Of a DNA stretch of 64,000 bases, positions 2,276-58,987 are shown in pieces. The notes below the pieces were generated by a model. It was not told where the DNA came from. It saw nothing but the letters and a program-made list of their open reading frames with translations, and did no database searches. The position numbers and the translations under genes were made by a program. The DNA is from an uncultured Anaerolineaceae bacterium (GTDB taxonomy: Bacteria; Chloroflexota; Limnocylindria; Limnocylindrales; CSP1-4), in the NCBI GenBank assembly GCA_964427285.1, contig CAYRTS010000003.1, positions 13,737 through 77,736 of the forward strand, in the 5' to 3' direction. Every line of letters starts with the position of its first letter. Within the stretch, counting starts at the first letter, position 1.

Positions 2276-3046
2276 ATGTGGCGGGCGCTCCTGACCGGTG
2301 AGGACCCGTCGCTCCTCAAGGTCCGTCGGCTTTGGAAGCGAGTGCCCGCGGCGCCCCGCTGCAAGGTGTGCGCCTCGCCCCTTCACGGGTTCGGGGGCGC
2401 AGTCGCACGCATGTTCTGGCACGGACCGATGCGCGACAACCCCCTGCTGTGCAAAGCCTGCTTCGGACAGCTCGCCAAGTTCCCGGGCGGCGCCGAGATC
2501 GAAATCAGCGTGGTGTTCGCCGACGTACGCGGCTCGACCGGCCTGGCCGAGCGGATATCCACTGCACGGTATCGCGCGCTTCTCCAGGACTACTACCGCG
2601 TCACGGCGATCGCCGTCGATGCGAACGGCGGCATCGTCGACAAGTTTCTGGGCGACGGCGTCATGGCCCTGTTCATCCCGGTCATCACCGGCGAAAACCA
2701 TGCCTATCGAGCAATCGAGGCCGGCATGGCGATCCTCACATCTATCGACCGGAGCGGCCTGGTCGACAAGGGCCTCATGGTCGGAGCCGGCGTCCATACG
2801 GGCGAAGCCTTTGTCGGGGCCATTGGCAGCGACGAGAAGATCGATTTCACCGCACTTGGCGACAACGTGAACATCGCGGCGCGCCTGGGCGCGCTGGCCG
2901 GCCCTGGCGAACTGCTCGTCAGTCGCGTGACGTGGGATCGCGCCGGCCTCGGCGTCCCGCCGGAGGAGCGCGAGGTCGAGATCGCGGGGCGGACGGGAAA
3001 CCTCGCGGTGGTCCCACTCGGTCGCTCTGGGGTCACCGTGGCCTGA
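2276..3046 (+). CDS. Class III adenylate/guanylate cyclase with N-terminal CxxC...CxxC zinc ribbon
   Basis: Trimmed from ORF 1451..3046 to the ATG at 2276 (alternative GTG at 2249). Zinc ribbon: CKVCASPL...CKACF. Canonical cyclase motifs are present: VVFADVRGST, DKFLGDGVMALF, GVHTGEAFVG and GDNVNIAARL. Confidence 0.85.
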   Translation: MWRALLTGEDPSLLKVRRLWKRVPAAPRCKVCASPLHGFGGAVARMFWHGPMRDNPLLCKACFGQLAKFPGGAEIEISVVFADVRGSTGLAERISTARYRALLQDYYRVTAIAVDANGGIVDKFLGDGVMALFIPVITGENHAYRAIEAGMAILTSIDRSGLVDKGLMVGAGVHTGEAFVGAIGSDEKIDFTALGDNVNIAARLGALAGPGELLVSRVTWDRAGLGVPPEEREVEIAGRTGNLAVVPLGRSGVTVA

Positions 3047-49787: not shown

Positions 49788-50270
49788 TCAGTCGGCCCTT
49801 GTCAGTTCGGCGGCGGCGGCCTGGACGGCTGCGACGATCCCGACATAGCCGGTGCAGCGACACAGGTTGCCTGAGAGGCCGGCCCGGATGTCATCCTCGG
49901 TTGGGTCCGGGTTGGCGCGCAGGAGGGCGGTCGCGCTGATCAGCATCCCGGGGGTGCAGAACCCGCACTGGACGCCGCCGTGCTCGAGGAAGGCCCGCTG
50001 CAGCGGATGGAGCGTGGAGCCCGAAGCGAGCCCCTCGACGGTCGTGACCTGGCGACCATCGGCCTGCAGCGCGAGATACGAGCAGGAATTCACCGGACGG
50101 CCGTCGATCAGGACCATGCAGGCGCCGCACTCGGAATCGTCGCAGCCCTCCTTGGATCCGGTCAGTCCGAGTTCGCCGCGCAGGACGGACAGCAACGTCC
50201 GGCCCGGCTCGATCTCCAGTGGGTAGCTCGTTTCGTTCACCTGGAGCGTCACGGGGTAGCGCACGATCAA
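49788..50270 (-). CDS. (2Fe-2S)-binding small subunit of a xanthine-dehydrogenase-family molybdoenzyme (CoxS-like)
   Basis: Motifs: GCDDSECGACMV, CGFCTPG and CRCTGY. Confidence 0.9.
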   Translation of the reverse strand: MIVRYPVTLQVNETSYPLEIEPGRTLLSVLRGELGLTGSKEGCDDSECGACMVLIDGRPVNSCSYLALQADGRQVTTVEGLASGSTLHPLQRAFLEHGGVQCGFCTPGMLISATALLRANPDPTEDDIRAGLSGNLCRCTGYVGIVAAVQAAAAELTRAD

Positions 50271-51163
50271 CTCGCTCCGAAGGTGCTGGCGCTGGCTGGA
50301 ATCAGGAGCGTCTCGCCGCGTGCCCGGGCGATCGCCCCGGTGACGGCGCGGCGCACGACAACGGCCGCCATCGCCCGGCGGTAGTCGAGCGAGGCGCGGA
50401 CGTCGGAGATCGGCGTCGCGGCCCCGGCCGCGAGCCTGCCCGCTTCCGCTGCGGCGGCGGGTCCCCCGTCGGAGCCGATCAGGGAGGATTCGGCGGCGGC
50501 GATCCGGCGAACCGTCGGGGCAAGCGCCGTGATGGCGATCCGGGCCTCGCGAACAATGTCGCCCTCGAGACGCACCACGGCTGTTGCGCCGACCACGGCG
50601 ATCTCCATCTGGCGGCGGTACTCGAGTCGGACATAGCAGCTGCCGGCTCCTGTGAGTTCGGGTAGCTCGACCGCGACGATGATTTCGTCCTGGCGGATGG
50701 CGGTCCGACCGGGACCGCTGAACAGATCGGCAAGGGCGATGCGGCGGCTACCGGTCGCGGAGCGGACTTCGACGAGCGCTTCGAAACAGAGCAACGGCCC
50801 GCTCGTCTCGGCAGCCGGCGAGGCGTTCGCGAGGTTCCCGCCGAGCGTCCCGATGTGCCGCGTGGCCGGTGAGCCGACGATCGATGCCGCGTCGGCGATG
50901 GCTGTCCAGCGGTCACGGATGGCCTGATCAGCGGCGAGATCGGCGTGGCTGGTGGTCGCGCCGATCCGGAGGCCACCGTCAGTCGCGACGATCCCGTGGA
51001 GCTCTGCGATCCGGTCCAGCGCCACGAGGTCTTCGGGCAAGGTCCACTTGCCCTGGCGGGTCCCGACAACGAGGTCCGTCCCGCCGGCGACGGGTCGGTG
51101 TCCCGAGGCGACCGCGGTCAGGGCGTCGGCCAGCGAGCTCGGGGCGCTGAAATGCCCGCCCAT
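50267..51163 (-). CDS. FAD-binding medium subunit (CoxM-like)
   Basis: Trimmed to the ATG at 51163. Motifs: PVAGGTDLVV and GTLGGNLANASPA. Confidence 0.85.
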   Translation of the reverse strand: MGGHFSAPSSLADALTAVASGHRPVAGGTDLVVGTRQGKWTLPEDLVALDRIAELHGIVATDGGLRIGATTSHADLAADQAIRDRWTAIADAASIVGSPATRHIGTLGGNLANASPAAETSGPLLCFEALVEVRSATGSRRIALADLFSGPGRTAIRQDEIIVAVELPELTGAGSCYVRLEYRRQMEIAVVGATAVVRLEGDIVREARIAITALAPTVRRIAAAESSLIGSDGGPAAAAEAGRLAAGAATPISDVRASLDYRRAMAAVVVRRAVTGAIARARGETLLIPASASTFGAS

Positions 51164-51164
51164 C

Positions 51165-53447
51165 TCAGCTTTCGCCGTTCGCGGCAATGGCGCCCCAGAT
51201 CCGCTCGGGCGTCATCGGCAGCTCGTGGATCCGGGTACCCAGGGCCCGGGCGATGGCATTGGCGATGGCGCCGGGCGTCGGGACATTCGGCGGCTCGGCG
51301 ATCCCCTTGAGCCCCTTGGGACCGGCGGCCGGTGAGGGAGCGTCGACGAAGTCGACGTGGATCGGCGGCATGTCCGCCACGGTCTGGAGCTTGTAGTCGA
51401 GGAGGTAGGCGTTGCGCTGCCGGCCGTCCGCTGAAAGCTGGATCCCCTCGCTGAGCGCCTGCCCGATCCCCATCGCCACGCCGCCGTAGATCTGGCCGGC
51501 CGCCCCGATCGGGTTAATGATCATCCCCGATTCGTGGGCCGCAGCGATCTCGAGGACGCGGACAACGCCGGTATCGCGGTCGACCTTGACCCGGGCGGCG
51601 TGGGTGAAGAACGTGGGCGCCGCAAACGACTCCGCACCCAGGCGCCCAACGCAGCTAGCGGCGTTGACGGCCGGCTTGGGTGGCGGCAGACCTGAGCCGC
51701 GCCCCAGCAACAGGCCGGCCCCCGAAGCCTCCGAGGCGAGATCCGCGATCGACACCGATGCGGTGCTGCTCCCCTTGACCCGGGCCATCCCATCGACAAG
51801 TTCGAGATCCGCCAGGTTGGCCTCGAGAAGATTGGCGGCAAGCTCGAGGAGCTGATCCCGGACCTCGGTCGCGGCGGCGATCACCGCCCGGCCGTTGTTG
51901 AACGTGGTCTGCGAGCCACTGGCGCCGCTGTCGTACGGCCCGGCGTCCGTGTCCTGGTACAGGATCCTGAATTGGTCTGGCCGCATCCCGAGCACCTCGG
52001 CGGCAAGGATCGGCAGGGCCATGACGGCGCCGGTGCCGCATTCCTGGGCCCCGGTGACGATCGTCCCGCTGCCATCGGCATTGATCGTGAGGTGGGCCCC
52101 CGACGCCAGCGGGAATGACGGCCACCAGCCGGTCGCGATACCGATCGCCTCGCCCTCTGGCAACGACTTCCCCCAGCCGACGGCGGCCGCCGCGCGCTCG
52201 AGCGTCTCGATGACGCCGATCCGCTCAAAGACCTGTCCCGTCGGACCGGTGTCACCTTCGTGGACCAGGTTCCGGCGACGGAATTCGACCGGGTCAAGGC
52301 CCAGTCGTTCGGCGACAACGTCATGGTGCTGTTCGAGCGCCCAGCAGGTCGTCGGTCCGGTTGGCGCCCGAACGGATCCTGATGGTTGGGTATTGGTGTA
52401 GACGACATCGGCGGTGACATCGACATTCGGGATCCGGTACGGCCCGACCGCGAACATGGCGGCCAGCTGACCGAGGAACGGCTCGTCCATGCTGTACGCG
52501 CCGTTGTCCACGATCAGGTGTCCGCGGCGGGCCACGATCGTGCCATCGCGCCGAACGCCCGTCTCGAGTTCCATGATCATTCGTTCGCGGCGATGGTCCG
52601 GCAACAGGAATTCCTCGCGCCGCGAGAAGACCACCTTGACGGCCCGACCGGCGGCCTTTGACAGCGCCGCGACCTGGGCCTCGAAACCGAGTTCGCATTT
52701 CGCCCCGAACCCGCCGCCGAGGTGGGGCACGATCACCCGGATCTGGTTCTGCGCGAGGCCGAGCGTTTCGGCCACCCCGGACCTGACCGCAAACGGCACC
52801 TGCGTGGACGTCCAGATGGTCACGTGGTCGCCAGTCCACTCGGCGAGGATCGCCCGCGGCTCGATCGGGACCGCATGGGAGCCGTCCGCAATGTAGCGAT
52901 CCTTGACCACGATGTCTGCTTCGGCCATGGCGGTCGCGGCGTCGCCCTTCACGATCGTGGATCGCGACGCGAGATTGCGGTCACGGACGAGGTTTTCGTC
53001 GGCCTCATAGGTCGCCCACGCATCGTGGACCAGGGGCGCATCGGGGCGCGTCGCAAGTTGAAGGTCGGTCACGGATGGGAGGACTTCAAGGTCGATATCG
53101 ATCAACGCCGCCGCCCGGGCGGCAATCTCAGGGGTGGCGGCGGCGACCGCGGCGATCAGCTCTCCCTCCCAGCGCACGACGTCGCGGGCGAAGAGCGTCC
53201 GGTCCTTGAGGAAGGCCCCGTAGCGGAGGTCGGGCACGTCCGCTGCCGTGATGACCGCATGGACGCCGGGCAGCGCTCGTGCGGCCGCCGTATCAAGCCG
53301 GCGGATGCGGGCGTGGGGGACATCGGCCACGCGGAACGCCCCGTGGAGCATCCCGGTCACGGTGAGGTCCGCCGTGTAGCGCCCGCTACCGGTGACCTTG
53401 TCCCGGCCGTCCTGCCGGATCAGTGCGGGGGGCGGGATCGGCGTCAT
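51165..53447 (-). CDS. Molybdopterin-binding large subunit of a xanthine dehydrogenase/aldehyde oxidase family enzyme (CoxL-like, not a CO dehydrogenase signature)
   Basis: Trimmed to the ATG at 53447. Motifs: RQDGRDKVTGSGRYTAD and HLGGGFGAK. The active-site loop reads SGSVRAPTGP rather than AYxCSFR or AYRGAGR. Confidence 0.85.
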   Translation of the reverse strand: MTPIPPPALIRQDGRDKVTGSGRYTADLTVTGMLHGAFRVADVPHARIRRLDTAAARALPGVHAVITAADVPDLRYGAFLKDRTLFARDVVRWEGELIAAVAAATPEIAARAAALIDIDLEVLPSVTDLQLATRPDAPLVHDAWATYEADENLVRDRNLASRSTIVKGDAATAMAEADIVVKDRYIADGSHAVPIEPRAILAEWTGDHVTIWTSTQVPFAVRSGVAETLGLAQNQIRVIVPHLGGGFGAKCELGFEAQVAALSKAAGRAVKVVFSRREEFLLPDHRRERMIMELETGVRRDGTIVARRGHLIVDNGAYSMDEPFLGQLAAMFAVGPYRIPNVDVTADVVYTNTQPSGSVRAPTGPTTCWALEQHHDVVAERLGLDPVEFRRRNLVHEGDTGPTGQVFERIGVIETLERAAAAVGWGKSLPEGEAIGIATGWWPSFPLASGAHLTINADGSGTIVTGAQECGTGAVMALPILAAEVLGMRPDQFRILYQDTDAGPYDSGASGSQTTFNNGRAVIAAATEVRDQLLELAANLLEANLADLELVDGMARVKGSSTASVSIADLASEASGAGLLLGRGSGLPPPKPAVNAASCVGRLGAESFAAPTFFTHAARVKVDRDTGVVRVLEIAAAHESGMIINPIGAAGQIYGGVAMGIGQALSEGIQLSADGRQRNAYLLDYKLQTVADMPPIHVDFVDAPSPAAGPKGLKGIAEPPNVPTPGAIANAIARALGTRIHELPMTPERIWGAIAANGES

Positions 53448-53596
53448 GGCGGGAGGATACCGCACGGCCGGAGTCGGCGAGGCGCCAGGAAACAGGTATC
53501 GACGGCCACGCTGGGTCCATACTCTGCGGATCATGCCGCACTCCATCAGCGCTGCCCGATTCGGCGGACCTGACCCTGTCCCAGGAGGTCCGGAGC

Positions 53597-56500
53597 ATGG
53601 CCCTGGCTGACGAACCAGGAGTCGCGGTCGCCGTTAGATCCAGCGTGACCTTGTGTCCGCTGGCGATGCAGGCGCGCGGCTCGGGCGAGCGGCTGGTGGG
53701 CCGGCCGATCGAGCTGGCCGCCATTCGCCAGGAACTGGCCACCGCAGCGTCGGGGAAGTTCGCCTGCGTGACCCTCGAAGGGGAGCCGGGGATCGGCAAG
53801 ACCCGGCTTCTCATGGCGGCCCTCGACCTGGTCGCGGCTGAGGGCTTCATTCCGGCGGCGGTCGCTGCGGACGAGGAGCTGCGGGGCCCCTTTCTGCTGG
53901 CCCGGTCCATCTTCGGATGCCAGGCCATCCAGGAGCTGCCCGCCGCCAGCCCTGCCGGATCGGCGGTGCGGCGAGCGCTCGACGCGATCGCCGGCCGGGA
54001 CGACCCGTCCCTGGCTGGTCTCCCCGCGGACGACAAGCTCCTGCGGACCTACGACCTGGCGGCCGTGGCCATCGCGGAACTGGCCGCGGTGCGCCCGCTT
54101 GCGATCGTCCTGGACGACCTGCAGTGGGCCGACGAGGACAGCCTGCGGCTCCTTCGCTATGTCATCCGGAGCGCGGCCGGCAGCCGGATCCTCCTGCTCA
54201 TCGCCCTGCGCCCGGAGGAAACCGCCGGATACAACGAGCTGGTCACCCTGGTCGCCGACATGGAGCGACTCGGCTTCCTGCGCCGGCTCCGCCTCCACCG
54301 CTTCACCCCGGCCGAGACCGCGGACTTCCTCCGACTTGTCCTCGGCGGCGATGTCAATCCTCTCAGCGGGGCGACGGTTCATGGGCAGGCCGAGGGCGTC
54401 CCGTTCATCGTCGAGGAGCTGGCCAAGGCGTATCGCGAAGCGGGCATGATCCGCCCGGTGGATGGCGTATGGACACTCGCCAGGAACGCGAGTCGCATCG
54501 TCCCTGCCGCGGTCCAAACGCTGATCCACCGGCGCGCGGCCCGGCTACCGGATGCCACCAAGGCGCTCCTGGCGGACGCGGGGATTCTCGGCCGCAGTTT
54601 CAGCCTGCGCGATCTTCGCGCCGTGAGCGACCAGCTGGGCGGTTCGGCCGTGGACGGTGCCGATCTGACCGAGCTGCTCGCCCCGGCAATCGCCGCCGGG
54701 TTGCTGATGCGATACCCCGAGGGGTCGGCGGCGGATTACGCCTTTCCGCATGAACAGGTCCGCGACTTCGTCGTGTCGTCGCTCCCGACGACGCGGCGGC
54801 GGCGTCTTCATGGCGCCATCGTGGAACTCCTGTCCGGGGCCGGCGAGCCATCTCCGGAGAGCCTGCCCATGCTCGCCCATCACGCCCGTGCGGCAGGCAA
54901 CGCGGAACTCAGCGCCCAGTTCGCCATCGAGGCCGCGAAGACGGCGCTCGCTCGGAACGCGCCGGAAGAGGTGATCCGGTCGGTCGAGCTGGGTCTCCCC
55001 GTGATCATCGAGCCACGAGACAGGGTGACGCTGCTGCTCCTGCGTGACGAAGCGCTTGGCATGCTTCACCGGTCGGGCGAGCGGCTGGACGCGCTGGCCG
55101 AAGTGTCAGCCCTGGCCGACGCGCTGCGCGACCCGAGCCTGACGCTCCGGCTGATGCTCCGGCGGTCGGCCGCGCTGCGCGACTCCAGCGACGAGGAGAC
55201 GGCGGCCGACGTCGCCCGGGAGGTCCGCCGCCGGGCTCAGGCCATGAAAGACCGACACCTGGAGCTGGCCGCGGACCTCGAACTCGGCCAGGCCCTGCTT
55301 CGGAGCCCACTCGGGGAAGCGTTCGTACCGGTCATCACGGAGATCGATGCCGACGGGGCGGGAGAAGCGTTCGAGTCGGCAGTCGAGCTGGCCCGGGCGC
55401 TCGGGGACGATCGCAGCCTCGCTGCCGCAAGCCGGGAGCTCGGCGTGGTCGCCATGGCCAGGGTCCGCGCCGCGTTCATCGATACGGTCCTCTCCGGCGC
55501 CCTTCCGCAGGACGTGCTCCTCAACGGTCCCCTTGCCGTGGTGTACAAGGAAGCGGTCGGTCGGTTCCAGCAGGCGATCGAGCTGTACGACCGCCTGGGC
55601 GATCGACATGGGCTGATGTCGTCCATCCTGGGTCTGGCGTATGCGACGTGGGGCGCCGAATTCGTTTTCTCGGGGGCGATCCGTCGCCTCGACGAACTCC
55701 GCCGACTCACCAATCGCATGTCGACCCTGGCCACAGAGAGCGAGCGGAACCTGGCCGAACTTCAACTCCTGTACGGGATTCATGTCTATGCCCGTGAGTT
55801 CGGGGATCCCGACCTCAGCCTGTCTCGCGGCGAGGAGGCCTATCGCCGAGCTCGTGCGCTCGGCGACCGGACGGTGGAGTTCCTGGCCGCGGGGGGGATG
55901 GCGTTGGCGCGCCTCCAGGTGGGCGGCGTCGCGGAGGCCGAAGACTGGCTGAGGCGAGCCGCGGAGGCGGCCTCGGCCGCTCCGACCCCGCTCAAGGCAC
56001 GGCGGTTGGAGTCCTGGCGCGGGCGCTGGGCTGGGGTTACTGGGCAGACCGCGGAGATGCGCAAACACCTCGCGCGGGCCGTCGAACTGGCGGTCGAGCA
56101 AGGTCTGCCCGCAGCTCGTTGCGAGGCGATGGCGCGCCTCGCGATCGAGGCGGCACGGCTGGGAAGCCAGGAGCGTGACAGCGAGCTGCTCGCCGTGGCC
56201 GAAGGTGCTGCGCAGGAGGCCATCGAGCTGGCCGCATCGCTTCCGGGACATCCGCCCTGGCGCGCCCAGGCCAACGCGGCGCTCACCTACGTCCATCTGG
56301 CGCGCAATGAGCCGGATGCCGCGCTCCAGAGCGCGCGATCGGCCGTGGCCGACTTCTTCGAGAGCGAGCAGGCCGAGATGTTCCTGGAGATCTGGCTGCC
56401 CTGCGCGCGCGTGATCCTCCCGCTGGGCACCGAGGACGAGGCGGCGGCTATCCGTGGCAGGCTCCAGATCCTGCTCGGTGGTGTCGCCGAACACACGCTC

Positions 56501-56833
56501 GACGACGCGTTGCGGGGTCGCTGGTTCGCGACCATGCCCCAATCCGAGATCGCCGAGTTGGTGGGCGGGGTCGAGGCGGCCCGGCTCGCCTACCGGACAT
56601 CCCCGCTCATGGTGGCCCACGGCAGCCTGCCCACCGCGTCGATCGAGCTGAACCCCGAGGAGCAGCGGCTCCTTCGCCTCATGACTGAATCGCATACGGA
56701 CTCCGAGATGGCGACCACGCTTGGCGTCAGCGAGGAGCAGGTCGTGCGGCAGCTGGGAGAAGTGATGGCCAGGCTCAATGCCCCGTCGCGAGCCACCGCG
56801 GCCGCGTTTGCCCTGATCCAGCGATTGGTCTGA
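53597..56833 (+). CDS. Large ATP-binding LuxR-family (LAL/MalT-like) regulator
   Basis: ATG at 53597 follows GGAGG. Walker A GEPGIGKTRL and Walker B IVLDDLQWAD, a long helical/TPR-like middle region, and a C-terminal LuxR HTH (EEQRLLRLMTESHTDSEMATTLGVSEEQVVRQL). Confidence 0.85.
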   Translation: MALADEPGVAVAVRSSVTLCPLAMQARGSGERLVGRPIELAAIRQELATAASGKFACVTLEGEPGIGKTRLLMAALDLVAAEGFIPAAVAADEELRGPFLLARSIFGCQAIQELPAASPAGSAVRRALDAIAGRDDPSLAGLPADDKLLRTYDLAAVAIAELAAVRPLAIVLDDLQWADEDSLRLLRYVIRSAAGSRILLLIALRPEETAGYNELVTLVADMERLGFLRRLRLHRFTPAETADFLRLVLGGDVNPLSGATVHGQAEGVPFIVEELAKAYREAGMIRPVDGVWTLARNASRIVPAAVQTLIHRRAARLPDATKALLADAGILGRSFSLRDLRAVSDQLGGSAVDGADLTELLAPAIAAGLLMRYPEGSAADYAFPHEQVRDFVVSSLPTTRRRRLHGAIVELLSGAGEPSPESLPMLAHHARAAGNAELSAQFAIEAAKTALARNAPEEVIRSVELGLPVIIEPRDRVTLLLLRDEALGMLHRSGERLDALAEVSALADALRDPSLTLRLMLRRSAALRDSSDEETAADVAREVRRRAQAMKDRHLELAADLELGQALLRSPLGEAFVPVITEIDADGAGEAFESAVELARALGDDRSLAAASRELGVVAMARVRAAFIDTVLSGALPQDVLLNGPLAVVYKEAVGRFQQAIELYDRLGDRHGLMSSILGLAYATWGAEFVFSGAIRRLDELRRLTNRMSTLATESERNLAELQLLYGIHVYAREFGDPDLSLSRGEEAYRRARALGDRTVEFLAAGGMALARLQVGGVAEAEDWLRRAAEAASAAPTPLKARRLESWRGRWAGVTGQTAEMRKHLARAVELAVEQGLPAARCEAMARLAIEAARLGSQERDSELLAVAEGAAQEAIELAASLPGHPPWRAQANAALTYVHLARNEPDAALQSARSAVADFFESEQAEMFLEIWLPCARVILPLGTEDEAAAIRGRLQILLGGVAEHTLDDALRGRWFATMPQSEIAELVGGVEAARLAYRTSPLMVAHGSLPTASIELNPEEQRLLRLMTESHTDSEMATTLGVSEEQVVRQLGEVMARLNAPSRATAAAFALIQRLV

Positions 56834-56838
56834 CGCGG

Positions 56839-57573
56839 ATGCTTACCGTTCGCGTCGACCGTACCCGCTGCATCGGCGCCGGCAATTGCATCCACGTCGC
56901 ACCGACCGCGTTTGACTGGCTCAAGGGCGATCACGGCAAGGCCGAGGTGGTCGATCCGACGAGCGTTGAGGAGGAGCTCGTCCGTGAGGCGGCCTTCGTG
57001 TGTCCCACCCAGGCCATCACCGTCGAAGTCGTGGAGGAACTTCTCCCCTGGCAGCTTCGCCAGCGTAGCCAGGTGACCCGACGGGTGGTCAAGACCTTCA
57101 TGTTCACCGACATCGTGGGCTCCACCAACCTGCTCGAGATGCTCGGTGACGAGGCCTGGAACGACCTGCTTCGCTGGCACAATGAGACCCTGCGCGGCCT
57201 GTTCGTCAGCTTCGAGGGCGACGAGGTGGCGGCCACCGGCGACGGCTTTTTCGTGGGCTTCGACTCCCCCGATGCCGCCCTCGCCTGTGCGGTCGCCGTT
57301 CAGCGAACGCTGCTTGAGCACCGCCAGAAGCACGGGTTCGCGCCACAGGTGCGCATCGGCGTCCACGCCTCGGGCGCGACCCAGGTCGGGCGCAACTTCC
57401 AGGGCAAGGGGGTGCACGAGGCCGCCAGGATCGCGGCGCTGGCCGAGGGCGGCCAGATCCTCGCGAGCCAGGAGACGGCGACCGGCGGCCGCTATCCCGC
57501 CGGGGATCCGCGAACCGTCACCCTCAAGGGAATCTCGGCGCCGATGGAGATCGTCACGATCGGCTGGCGGTGA
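56839..57573 (+). CDS. Ferredoxin (single-cluster Fer4) fused to a class III nucleotidyl cyclase domain
   Basis: The N-terminal VRVDRTRCIGAGNCIHVAPTAF...AAFVCPTQAI is a small-ferredoxin pattern. Cyclase motifs follow: FMFTDIVGST, TGDGFFVGF, RIGVHASG and GVHEAARI. The gene starts 6 nt after the LAL regulator stop. Confidence 0.8.
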   Translation: MLTVRVDRTRCIGAGNCIHVAPTAFDWLKGDHGKAEVVDPTSVEEELVREAAFVCPTQAITVEVVEELLPWQLRQRSQVTRRVVKTFMFTDIVGSTNLLEMLGDEAWNDLLRWHNETLRGLFVSFEGDEVAATGDGFFVGFDSPDAALACAVAVQRTLLEHRQKHGFAPQVRIGVHASGATQVGRNFQGKGVHEAARIAALAEGGQILASQETATGGRYPAGDPRTVTLKGISAPMEIVTIGWR

Positions 57574-57622
57574 CTCGGGGACGGGTCGCCGGTCACGTCC
57601 AGGAATCGAAAGGATGCGACGC

Positions 57623-58987
57623 ATGAGCGAGGACGTTCCGGCGGGACTGCGTGGGCCACTCGCGCACGTCCTGGAGGTCCGGGGGGCGAAGCGGACCGGC
57701 CTGCACGTTGGGCTCGAGCACCGGGAAGCGCTCGTCTACACCCTCGGCAAGGCGGCCGAGCTCGAGCACCTGATCATGCTGCAGTACCTGTTCGCAGCGT
57801 TCTCGCTGAAGCAGACGGTCGGCGAGGGACTGTCTGCGGAGACGCTGCCCGCGGTCCAGCGCTGGCGCAAGACGTTGCTGCAGATCGGCGAGCAGGAGAT
57901 GCTCCACCTGGCGATCGTCCAGAACCTCCTGACGGCCGTGGGCGCGGCCCCCCGCCTGACCCGCCCGAACTTCCCGCTTCCGGCTCACGCCTACCCGGCG
58001 GGCGTCCGGATCGAATTGCTGCCGTTCGGTGAGGCTGCGCTGCGCCACTTCGCCTTCCTCGAGCGGCCGGAGGGGCTTGCCGTCGACGACGCCGAGGGCT
58101 TCGAGGCCCTGGGCCGGGCAATCGCCCTGCCCCTCGACCAGGCGGACGAGATCGTGCCGCAGCTGCAGGAGTTCGACACGATCGGCCAGCTTTACCGGTC
58201 GATCCAGGCCGGCCTGGAGCACCTGGACGACAAGCTAGGCTCCGCGCGGCTGTTCATCGGGCCGCCCAATGCCCAGGCGACCGCCGAACACTTTCGGTGG
58301 ACAGAGCTCGTGGCCGTGACGGACCTTGCATCGGCGCAGCGGGCGATCGACACGATCGTCGAGCAGGGCGAGGGCGCCCGCGGCGAGTGGCGGAACGCAC
58401 ACTTCGGGATGCTCCTGGGGATCCTCGAGGAGTACCTCGCGATCCGCCGGCTGGATCCGGGGTTCGAGCCCACCCGGCCAGTCGTGGCGGCCAATGTCCG
58501 GCCGCAGGCCACCGGTGCCAGCATGCCGCTCATCACCGATCCGGGCACGGTTCGCTGCATGGACCTCCTCAACGTCACCTATGAGGTCCTGCTCCAGGTC
58601 CTCTCCCGCTATTTCGCCCACACGGACGAAACGCCAGAGCAGCTCCGGGTCCTGGCCGACGTGTCGGTCGGCCTGATGTATGCCGCGATCAAGCCGCTCG
58701 GGAACGTCGTCACGACGCAGCCTGTCGGGGCGGACCTGCCGGGCGTGATGGCGGGCCCGGGTTTCGAGCTTTTCTACCAGGTCGACTATCTGCTCCCGCA
58801 CCGCGAGGCCGCATGGATCGTGATGGAGGAACGGCTCCGTGAGGCGGCGGCGTTCGCCGTCCGCTGCGGTCAGGCCTGCACGATCGCCCTCATGGAGCCG
58901 CTGGCCAAGGTTGCCCGCTCGCTCGAGAAGTACGCCGACATGCTCGCGGCCGCGGGTATCAGCGAAGAGGTGTCAGGCCCCCTGTGA
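57623..58987 (+). CDS. Ferritin-like domain protein (VioB N-terminal-domain type), function unknown
   Basis: Trimmed to the ATG at 57623 (alternative 57614). AAELEHLIMLQYLFAAFSL...GEQEMLHLAIVQNLLTAVG resembles paired ExxH-type helices of ferritin-like proteins. Confidence 0.6.
   Translation: MSEDVPAGLRGPLAHVLEVRGAKRTGLHVGLEHREALVYTLGKAAELEHLIMLQYLFAAFSLKQTVGEGLSAETLPAVQRWRKTLLQIGEQEMLHLAIVQNLLTAVGAAPRLTRPNFPLPAHAYPAGVRIELLPFGEAALRHFAFLERPEGLAVDDAEGFEALGRAIALPLDQADEIVPQLQEFDTIGQLYRSIQAGLEHLDDKLGSARLFIGPPNAQATAEHFRWTELVAVTDLASAQRAIDTIVEQGEGARGEWRNAHFGMLLGILEEYLAIRRLDPGFEPTRPVVAANVRPQATGASMPLITDPGTVRCMDLLNVTYEVLLQVLSRYFAHTDETPEQLRVLADVSVGLMYAAIKPLGNVVTTQPVGADLPGVMAGPGFELFYQVDYLLPHREAAWIVMEERLREAAAFAVRCGQACTIALMEPLAKVARSLEKYADMLAAAGISEEVSGPL

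Follow-up and report, generated by a model that had tools for sequence, protein, structure and literature searches.

A ferredoxin-cyclase fusion and a STAND-LuxR regulator encoded by a conserved gene pair in uncultured soil bacteria

Results

Organisation of the gene pair

We analysed a stretch of 64,000 nucleotides, hereafter called the window, from contig CAYRTS010000003.1 of an uncultured Anaerolineaceae bacterium (phylum Chloroflexota). Two adjacent genes of the window encode a regulator of the LAL-type STAND family and, directly downstream on the same strand, a ferredoxin joined to a class III cyclase homology domain (CHD). With all coordinates given as positions in the window, the pair is laid out as follows.

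53584..53589, forward strand: Shine-Dalgarno-like AGGAGG, seen directly in the sequence 7 nucleotides ahead of the regulator ATG
53597..56833, forward strand: LAL-type STAND regulator gene, 1078 amino acids, with an NTPase, a winged helix, a predicted TPR-like (tetratricopeptide repeat-like) solenoid and a LuxR helix-turn-helix (HTH)
56834..56838, forward strand: spacer cgcgg of 5 nucleotides, separating the regulator TGA (56831-56833) from the ferredoxin-cyclase ATG at 56839
56839..57573, forward strand: ferredoxin-cyclase fusion gene, 244 amino acids, delineated from its open reading frame (ORF) and its Pfam domains

The initial annotation, made from the letters and translations of the window, had proposed that ferredoxin and cyclase are joined in the single gene 56839..57573 and that an ATPase-LuxR regulator of 1078 amino acids lies upstream. 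Both proposals were confirmed, the former by three Pfam matches that all exceed their curated cut-offs, the latter by an AAA_16 NTPase match over residues 32-198 of the regulator (Pfam, E-value 2e-17) together with a C-terminal LuxR-type HTH. The gap between the two genes, given there as 6 nucleotides, is in fact 5. For the regulator, the start at 53597 was preferred over the GTG at 53423 because of the placement of the AGGAGG, and the lengths of the orthologues (1041-1100 amino acids) agree with this choice. A scan of positions 53300-57800 for sigma-70 promoters and intrinsic terminators gave none.

Genomic linkage of the two genes

Among the matches listed for the ferredoxin-cyclase, 120 homologues were all 239-247 amino acids long, 69-98% identical and of the same architecture. 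At the level of species-level genome loci, a homologue of the regulator was found directly upstream and on the same strand in 80 loci out of 80, with an intergenic gap ranging from -7 to +48 nucleotides. These upstream homologues cover about 1055-1077 of the 1078 residues, with roughly 50% identity, at nearly all loci with enough upstream sequence, and the regulator orthologues upstream of each family member inspected are full length, with 47-56% identity. On four long metagenomic contigs, the AAA_16/TPR/GerE gene ends 2-3 nucleotides ahead of the ferredoxin-cyclase, in neighbourhoods that are otherwise unrelated. No third conserved gene was found in the survey, the largest family of flanking ORFs being present at 13 of 81 loci.

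Co-occurrence was assessed on 401 genomes forming an even sample of the phylum of the window, searched with each gene. The full-length ferredoxin-cyclase was detected in 7 of them; the regulator search, which used a stricter first look and may have missed weak matches, recovered orthologues (E-value at most 1e-274, 48-52% identity) in the same 7 genomes only, where they are adjacent to the ferredoxin-cyclase. The two other searched genomes of the genus of the window lack both genes. Taken together, the survey of loci and the searches in both directions strongly support the suggestion of the initial annotation that cyclase and regulator form a functional pair. The strict two-way genomic linkage of the pair is a direct observation, as are its domain make-up and the conservation of its cluster ligands and catalytic core described below.

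According to their NCBI labels, about 65 of the 80 genomes belong to Actinomycetota and 11 to Chloroflexota. Chloroflexota is also the label of the nearest relatives of the window, at 97% and 84% identity, and the tree interleaves rows labelled Chloroflexota and Actinomycetota. Some near-identical modules carry different phylum labels (loci L070 and L073, Dormiibacterota versus Actinomycetota; loci L048 and L049, Planctomycetota versus Actinomycetota), conflicts that are probably due to errors of binning or labelling. Because the labels of metagenome-assembled genomes are unreliable, we make no claim of transfer across phyla.

The region upstream of the regulator was also searched for an operator in 59 non-redundant loci, and no palindrome stood above shuffled sequences. 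The sole enriched word, GGCTACCCT, is located at -18 to -46 from the regulator start in 10 of the 59 loci, all actinobacterial (L046-L049, L066, L072, L080, L083, L087 and L101), and looks like a -10 element of the TANNNT type. The window does not contain this word; CCATACTCT is found there about 80 nucleotides upstream. Finally, four apparent fusions of regulator, ferredoxin and CHD in a single ORF (P0134, P0223, P0124 and P0148) were rejected: out-of-frame stretches in their alignment identify them as assembly frameshift artefacts. These four sequences are products of error-prone assemblies serving as cluster representatives.

A three-cysteine ferredoxin and a conserved linker

The N-terminal part of the fusion comprises two elements.

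56848..57024, forward strand: single-cluster ferredoxin domain, residues 4-62, with C11, A14, C17 and C55-P56, matched by Fer4_13 and Fer4_15
57025..57093, forward strand: conserved linker, residues 63-85, including the invariant LLPWQ.R

Pfam assigned Fer4_13 to residues 6-62 (E-value 2e-10, 41.7 bits) and Fer4_15 to residues 4-62 (E-value 5e-9, 37.3 bits), and the sequence matches of this part in the PDB are single-cluster ferredoxins from Thermotoga, Desulfovibrio, Pyrococcus and M. tuberculosis (1rof, 1dax, 2z8q and 8amp). Conservation within the family was read from an alignment of 30 ferredoxin-cyclase members, 69-84% identical to the query. The domain possesses only three cysteines, C11, C17 and C55, which are invariant in this alignment together with P56, while the fourth-ligand position is occupied by A14, or its equivalent Ala, in 28 of the 30 members. 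The resulting ligand pattern, C11-x2-A14-x2-C17 ... C55-P56, fits the CxxXxxC(x)nCP ligand motif of single-cluster ferredoxins. Within this class, [3Fe-4S] ferredoxins are characterised by CxxA/GxxC(x)nCP and [4Fe-4S] ferredoxins by CxxCxxC(x)nCP (PMC6237146). From this motif and from the Ala at the fourth-ligand position, the domain most likely holds a [3Fe-4S] cluster.

In the linker, L68, L69, P70, W71, Q72 and R74 do not vary in the 30 members. Its sequence aligns with the N-terminal extension of the solved cyclase Ma1120 (4wp3) and lies inside the span matching the LipJ model NF058673. Conservation of the ferredoxin domain comes close to that of the CHD (mean pairwise identity of 0.71 versus 0.75).

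Catalytic residues of the cyclase

The remainder of the protein is occupied by the CHD, whose catalytic positions are listed with their counterparts in solved structures.

57094..57570, forward strand: class III CHD, residues 86-244, with D91, D135, R197 and K230 kept and with A131, N186 and H193 in place of the canonical Lys, Asp and Asn
Metal Asp: D91 (FTDIVGST) and D135 (TGDGFF), opposite the corresponding Asp residues in Ma1120 and in Rv1900c
Lys position: A131, opposite K101 of Ma1120 and the Asn of EVNTAGDG in Rv1900c
Adenine-specifying Asp position: N186, opposite D157 of Ma1120
Transition-state Asn position: H193, opposite A164 of Ma1120 and the His of GVAVHIGARV in Rv1900c
Transition-state Arg: R197
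Triphosphate Lys of the LKG motif: K230

The Pfam family Guanylate_cyc (PF00211) matches residues 86-215 with an E-value of 3e-9 and 37.0 bits, for a cut-off of 21.9. The top NCBIfam match is the cyclase part of the model of LipJ (Rv1900c), over residues 64-236 with an E-value of 5e-30; its score lies far under the whole-protein cut-off because only the CHD part matches. The closest solved relatives detected with HMMER are Ma1120 (4wp3), with E-values of 5e-24 for the single sequence and 5e-31 for the family profile, and Rv1900c (1ybt), with 2e-19 and 6e-28, respectively. The CHD of the AlphaFold2 model, predicted with a per-residue confidence (pLDDT) of 80-95, superimposes on Ma1120 (4wp8) with a template modelling (TM) score of 0.91 and a root-mean-square deviation of 1.5 Å, and on Rv1900c with a TM score of 0.88.

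Residues were mapped by profile alignments to the solved structures, using the published numbering of Ma1120, K101, D157, A164 and R168 (PMC4215837). When only the CHD and the canonical cyclase of the window were aligned with MAFFT, the GDG motif was misplaced by 7 columns, and this pairwise alignment was discarded. The initial annotation had stated by eye that both metal Asp are retained, that the Lys is replaced by Ala and the Asn by His, and that the segment between IGVH and the NxxxR motif is shortened. The formal alignment upholds all of this: the metal Asp align to those of the solved structures, A131 and H193 are not shifted with respect to Ma1120 and Rv1900c, and the segment counts 17 residues between H176 and H193 versus 25 in the canonical cyclase encoded at 2276..3046. 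A third substitution had been overlooked, that of the adenine-specifying Asp by N186. The canonical Asn-Arg pair is incomplete, R197 being present and the Asn replaced by His, and the canonical pair of the Lys/Asp type (adenylyl) or of the Glu/Cys type (guanylyl) is absent, A131 and N186 standing in its place. The alignment with Ma1120 is gap-free across the short arm segment. The short dimerisation arm is a trait of the subgroup of Rv1900c/Ma1120-type CHDs, which corresponds to class IIIc of the Linder-Schultz scheme.

The canonical cyclase used for comparison (2276-3046, forward strand) is a protein of 256 amino acids whose class III CHD has K, D, N and R all present and an arm of 25 residues. 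Its N-terminal segment contains two CxxC pairs (CKVCASP ... CKACF) with the look of a zinc ribbon.

We then considered how usual the substitutions are. No variation was seen among the 30 family members at D91, T133, D135, G191, H193, E194 and R197, and position 230 always carries K or R. Position 186 is N in 26 members, D in 3 and S in 1, and position 131 is variable (V in 17, T in 7, A in 3, plus L, S and G), so that Ala at the Lys position is not a feature of the family. A wider subgroup sample was formed by the 150 closest representatives of 50%-identity clusters, drawn from 1.84 billion proteins, and residues were counted where the position was aligned. The metal Asp are found there in 148 of 148 (D91) and 146 of 146 sequences (D135), and the Arg at R197 in 144 of 146. 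The Asn position is His in 133 of 146 sequences and Asn in 12. Both the Lys position (D 68, K 27, N 14, S 10, V 7 and others) and the Asp position are free.

Rv1900c, which also has His at the Asn position, was reportedly found active by Sinha et al. in 2005 (EMBO J 24:663), with a guanylyl side activity and with N342 and H402 dispensable. As for Ma1120, it has Ala at this position and is an active adenylyl cyclase, and restoring the Asn (A164N) drastically cuts its activity (PMC4215837). Thus, the Asn of the Asn-Arg pair is not required in this subgroup of CHDs. The view that the substitutions are the sign of a peculiar or degenerate enzyme is not supported by these comparisons, and the apparently odd catalytic residues are normal for the subgroup. 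Within the family, the catalytic core is strongly constrained and the canonical base-reading pair is not used; that the metal Asp, the Arg and the triphosphate Lys/Arg never vary speaks for an active enzyme.

Domain architecture of the regulator

Three functional segments were located in the regulator.

53780..53803, forward strand: Walker A GEPGIGKT, residues 62-69, with G62, E63, P64, G65, G67, K68, T69 and R70 invariant in 35 orthologues
54098..54139, forward strand: Walker B region AIVLDDLQWADED, residues 168-181, with D173, Q176, W177, D179 and D181 invariant in 35 orthologues
56612..56818, forward strand: C-terminal LuxR/NarL-type HTH, residues ~1006-1074, from matches of the sequence and of the family profile and from the AlphaFold2 model

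The Walker A is conserved at 95% or more in 54 orthologues, and the Walker B pattern DD.QW.D.D, at residues 172-181, is invariant in 35-54 orthologues. The HTH was recognised through a match to RhlR with the single sequence (E-value 2.5e-4) and to the DNA-binding domains of NarL, DevR, VraR and GerE with the family profile (E-value 4e-8, residues ~1006-1080); Pfam GerE falls under its cut-off in the window copy (16.6 versus 23.5 bits), and TPR_12 is a weak match (20.1 bits for a cut-off of 30.1). The AlphaFold2 model, with a mean pLDDT of 84.8, displays an alpha/beta NTPase together with a winged helix; residues ~398-1000 form an all-helical solenoid matching TPR proteins, and residues 1020-1074 a four-helix HTH bundle. 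Its best fold match in the PDB is the STAND-TPR protein 6mfv (E-value 7e-12), followed by peptide-binding TPR proteins and Apaf-1. The regulator is a LAL/MalT-like STAND transcription regulator.

Only one of its five cysteines, C842 (56120-56122), located in the TPR solenoid, is conserved in at least 90% of the orthologues. That C842 could supply a fourth ligand to the three-cysteine cluster of the partner is pure speculation.

Association of related cyclase domains with STAND proteins

The ferredoxin is present in only about 10 of 155 aligned CHD matches. The remaining close relatives share 50-60% identity over the CHD, and the match usually stops at or near the C-terminus of the protein. Pfam was run on 63 of these non-ferredoxin relatives, a sample deliberately enriched for proteins of at least 1000 amino acids, and returned TPR_12 in 23, AAA_16 in 15, TPR_MalT in 15, GerE in 11, BTAD in 4, protoglobin in 1 and CHASE2 in 1. 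The architectures AAA_16-TPR-CHD, NB-ARC-TPR-CHD and AAA_16-TPR-GerE-CHD were observed, and wherever hit coordinates were read the CHD stands at the C-terminus, after GerE. The AAA_16-TPR-GerE-CHD proteins, among them P0143 and P0175, agree with the gene pair in the order of their domains, which argues for a functional link by a reasoning of the Rosetta-stone type. Through the close relatives fused to protoglobin and to CHASE2, this CHD subgroup is also coupled to haem-type and membrane sensors.

The genome of the window contains 7 CHD genes and 10 cNMP-binding (cyclic nucleoside monophosphate-binding) ORFs, a cyclic-nucleotide apparatus that is large for a genome of 3.35 Mb. Further CHD loci of this genome (L102-L106, on contigs C12, C2, C6, C126 and C11) include three CHD-STAND-TPR proteins with an N-terminal CHD (914, 983 and 874 amino acids), a LipJ-like alpha/beta-hydrolase-CHD protein (444 amino acids, His at the Asn position) and a CHD protein of 290 amino acids.

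Genes flanking the pair in the window

The pair is flanked in the window by ordinary metabolic genes, with xanthine-dehydrogenase-family genes on one side and ferritin-like and FAD-oxidoreductase (flavin adenine dinucleotide) genes on the other. The former, at 50267-53546 on the reverse strand, encode molybdenum-binding (793 amino acids) and FAD-binding (306 amino acids) subunits and are divergent from the regulator; only 50 nucleotides lie between the first ATG of the molybdenum-binding subunit (53546) and that of the regulator (53597). Downstream, a ferritin-like gene (PF12902; 57623-58987, forward strand) starts 49 nucleotides past the ferredoxin-cyclase stop with no terminator-like site in between. 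At the other loci surveyed, the ferritin-like gene was not found beside the pair.

Discussion

A candidate signalling pair and its alternatives

We propose that the two-gene operon is a self-contained signalling pair, in which a cyclase gated by an iron-sulphur (Fe-S) cluster works with its own STAND regulator; the probability that we attach to this proposal is roughly 45%, slightly below even odds. The fusion belongs to the Rv1900c/Ma1120 subgroup of class III nucleotidyl cyclases and is probably soluble and active. The redox state or integrity of its cluster, reflecting redox, oxygen/nitric oxide (NO) or iron status, would be transmitted to the cyclase homodimer through the invariant LLPWQ.R linker and would set the rate of cNMP synthesis, the product most likely being cyclic AMP (cAMP) with loose purine specificity. 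The cyclase, or its locally made product, would then act on the STAND regulator, which would switch target promoters. What we infer in this scheme is cluster binding and catalysis, the identity of the substrate, control by the cluster, and how and in which direction the cyclase and the regulator make contact.

A bolder version of the proposal can be formulated, which we regard as possible but rather doubtful. The cyclase would be the first soluble one gated by an Fe-S cluster, and the pair would work as a private second-messenger circuit: its [3Fe-4S] cluster would report redox, oxygen/NO or iron and turn the cyclase dimer on or off via the invariant linker, the cyclase would be docked on the TPR solenoid of the regulator, and the nucleotide made there would locally induce this regulator alone, shielded from the six other cyclases and ten cNMP receptors of the cell.

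Several observations weigh against the proposed signalling pair. [3Fe-4S] ferredoxins usually serve as electron carriers rather than sensors. The ferredoxin part of the AlphaFold2 model has low confidence (pLDDT 30-60), so that its packing on the cyclase is not readable from the model. The substrate cannot be named, because both canonical substrate-specifying residues are missing and the Lys position varies within the family. Pfam detected no recognisable cNMP-binding domain in the regulator, and for this reason the direct step from product to regulator is one that we purely infer. Finally, distances between family members run in parallel for the two proteins (Mantel r of 0.89, reached by 0 of 999 permutations), in keeping with a unit inherited together, but any two adjacent co-inherited genes would be expected to behave in this way.

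The signal could also run in the opposite direction, the STAND regulator being the sensor. Its oligomerisation, driven by ligand and ATP, would recruit and pair ferredoxin-cyclases; the cyclase would be the output beside the LuxR HTH and the Fe-S cluster a second, gating input. The closest non-ferredoxin relatives with coordinates read are indeed STAND proteins with the CHD at one end, the genome of the window encodes three CHD-STAND-TPR proteins, and the TPR solenoid of the regulator model resembles peptide-binding TPR proteins such as LGN. Moreover, class III cyclases form their active sites only as dimers (PMC4174876). We nevertheless hold this direction to be unlikely, as the cyclase of the split form has a sensor-like domain of its own, a better fit to an input role, and the fused relatives are only distant homologues of the regulator (E-value of 1e-27 or weaker, in the NTPase part). 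Alternatively, the CHD might make no cNMP at all and only bind nucleotide or dimerise, acting as a redox-dependent co-activator or anti-activator of the regulator. The replacement of Lys, Asp and Asn of the canonical hexad and the inheritance of the pair as a unit would suit such a pseudo-enzyme, and for the mycobacterial cyclase-LuxR proteins Mclx2 and Mclx3, which are without catalytic residues, a role in allosteric nucleotide binding has been put forward (PMC4452763). Without catalysis, however, one would not expect metal Asp, Arg and triphosphate Lys/Arg to be invariant in the family and nearly so in the subgroup. Rv1900c, although devoid of the same canonical residues, is also said to be active in the work of Sinha et al. 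2005, and the active relative Ma1120 is without the canonical Asn (PMC4215837). A pseudo-enzyme is for these reasons improbable in our view.

Two further explanations were considered. A Pycsar-type anti-phage defence based on cyclic nucleotides would account for a weak PADLOC match to PycC (25.5 bits, E-value 2e-6) and for the patchy spread of the module across families, including its absence from the two other searched genomes of the genus. Yet the PycC match is at the level of general CHD homology and the regulator has no PADLOC match; no adjacent effector with transmembrane or TIR domains and no conserved effector neighbour was found, the partner is a DNA-binding regulator, and the flanking genes are ordinary metabolic ones. 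We thus consider a defence role very improbable. The position of the pair in the window, between xanthine-dehydrogenase-family genes and ferritin-like/FAD-oxidoreductase genes, could in turn suggest a plain electron carrier for a nearby oxidoreductase, adjacent to the regulator by chance. The neighbourhood survey already contradicts this, since the neighbour genes of the window are conserved at no other locus whereas the regulator is present at 80 out of 80, and since the ferredoxin is covalently joined to the cyclase in every member; almost no credence is left for it.

Class III cyclases are wired to light, pH, lipids, haem, bicarbonate and quinones. We know of no soluble cyclase gated by a ferredoxin-type Fe-S cluster that has been characterised so far. 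As a cyclase strictly paired with a single STAND-LuxR regulator, the fusion is a simple and testable case of signal separation in a bacterium with many cyclases, and may shed light on the frequent joining of cyclases and STAND ATPases, including in the poorly understood mycobacterial Mclx proteins. The pair appears to be a conserved signalling unit of uncultured soil Actinomycetota and Chloroflexota. About 70% identity within the family and its occurrence in 80 or more of their genomes, counted at species level, make it likely that it matters for the physiology of its hosts.

Relation to known systems

The best matches of the cyclase, in sequence and in fold, are Rv1900c (LipJ) of M. tuberculosis (1ybt/1ybu) and Ma1120 of M. 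avium (4wp3-4wpa, 5d0e-5d15), with TM scores of 0.88-0.91. The three proteins share the short dimerisation arm, both metal Asp, the Arg and a similar N-terminal linker. The Asn position is non-canonical in all of them, with His in the fusion and in Rv1900c and Ala in Ma1120, and a residue other than Lys at the Lys position is also found in Rv1900c. Ma1120, by contrast, retains the Lys and Asp, which in the fusion are Ala (variable in the family) and Asn. The N-terminal partner differs as well, being an alpha/beta hydrolase in LipJ and a three-cysteine ferredoxin in the fusion, while Ma1120 has none. Unlike the ferredoxin-cyclase, the genes of Rv1900c and Ma1120 are not tied to a STAND regulator.

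On the side of the regulator, the likeness is to LAL/MalT-type STAND regulators and to the 6mfv protein, with an AAA_16 NTPase, intact Walker A and B, a winged helix and a predicted TPR-like solenoid, and to the former also through the C-terminal LuxR HTH. To our knowledge, no known LAL has been described with an obligatory ferredoxin-cyclase partner, and our literature search found no paper on a soluble ferredoxin-cyclase combined with a STAND-LuxR architecture.

The mycobacterial Mclx proteins (Rv0386, Rv1358 and Rv2488c) carry CHD, AAA/NB-ARC and LuxR domains in a single chain, and only Rv0386 has been characterised (PMC4452763). They have in common with the pair a class III CHD, a STAND-type ATPase and a LuxR HTH, together with non-canonical substrate residues, a purine side activity being reported for Rv0386. 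Their CHD, however, is N-terminal, fused and without ferredoxin. The pair was not assigned to the Mclx type, as it consists of two genes with a separate CHD gene downstream and an extra ferredoxin domain.

Class III cyclases linked to a ferredoxin have been described among membrane enzymes of class IIIb, as a small set that combines a di-haem b anchor with a cytosolic ferredoxin module (PMC4821796, PMC10463352). In this group, the [2Fe-2S] enzyme CyaC of S. meliloti is redox-regulated and forms complexes with CycR, a TetR regulator encoded beside it, and with Clr; its authors proposed the complex of CyaC with a regulator as a route to specific cAMP signalling (PMC10463352). CyaC, itself redox-regulated and bound to a regulator encoded next door, can be seen as a functional analogue of the fusion, which resembles it in the Fe-S module placed beside a class III CHD. 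CyaC differs in being membrane-bound through a six-helix di-haem b anchor, with a [2Fe-2S] cluster, a class IIIb CHD and partners of the TetR and CRP types, whereas the fusion is predicted to be soluble and has a Fer4-type three-cysteine domain, a short-arm CHD and a STAND-LuxR partner. A membrane cyclase of the CyaC type was rejected: there is no room for the anchor, because the 244 amino acids are filled by the Fer4-type domain (4-62), the linker and the CHD (86-244).

The combination of a ferredoxin with a class III cyclase is thus not wholly unprecedented, and fusions of cyclase, STAND and LuxR domains are known too. What appears to be new here is a soluble protein with a Fer4-type three-cysteine domain and a short-arm CHD, encoded by a separate gene after that of the regulator and linked with it in a strict one-to-one partnership.

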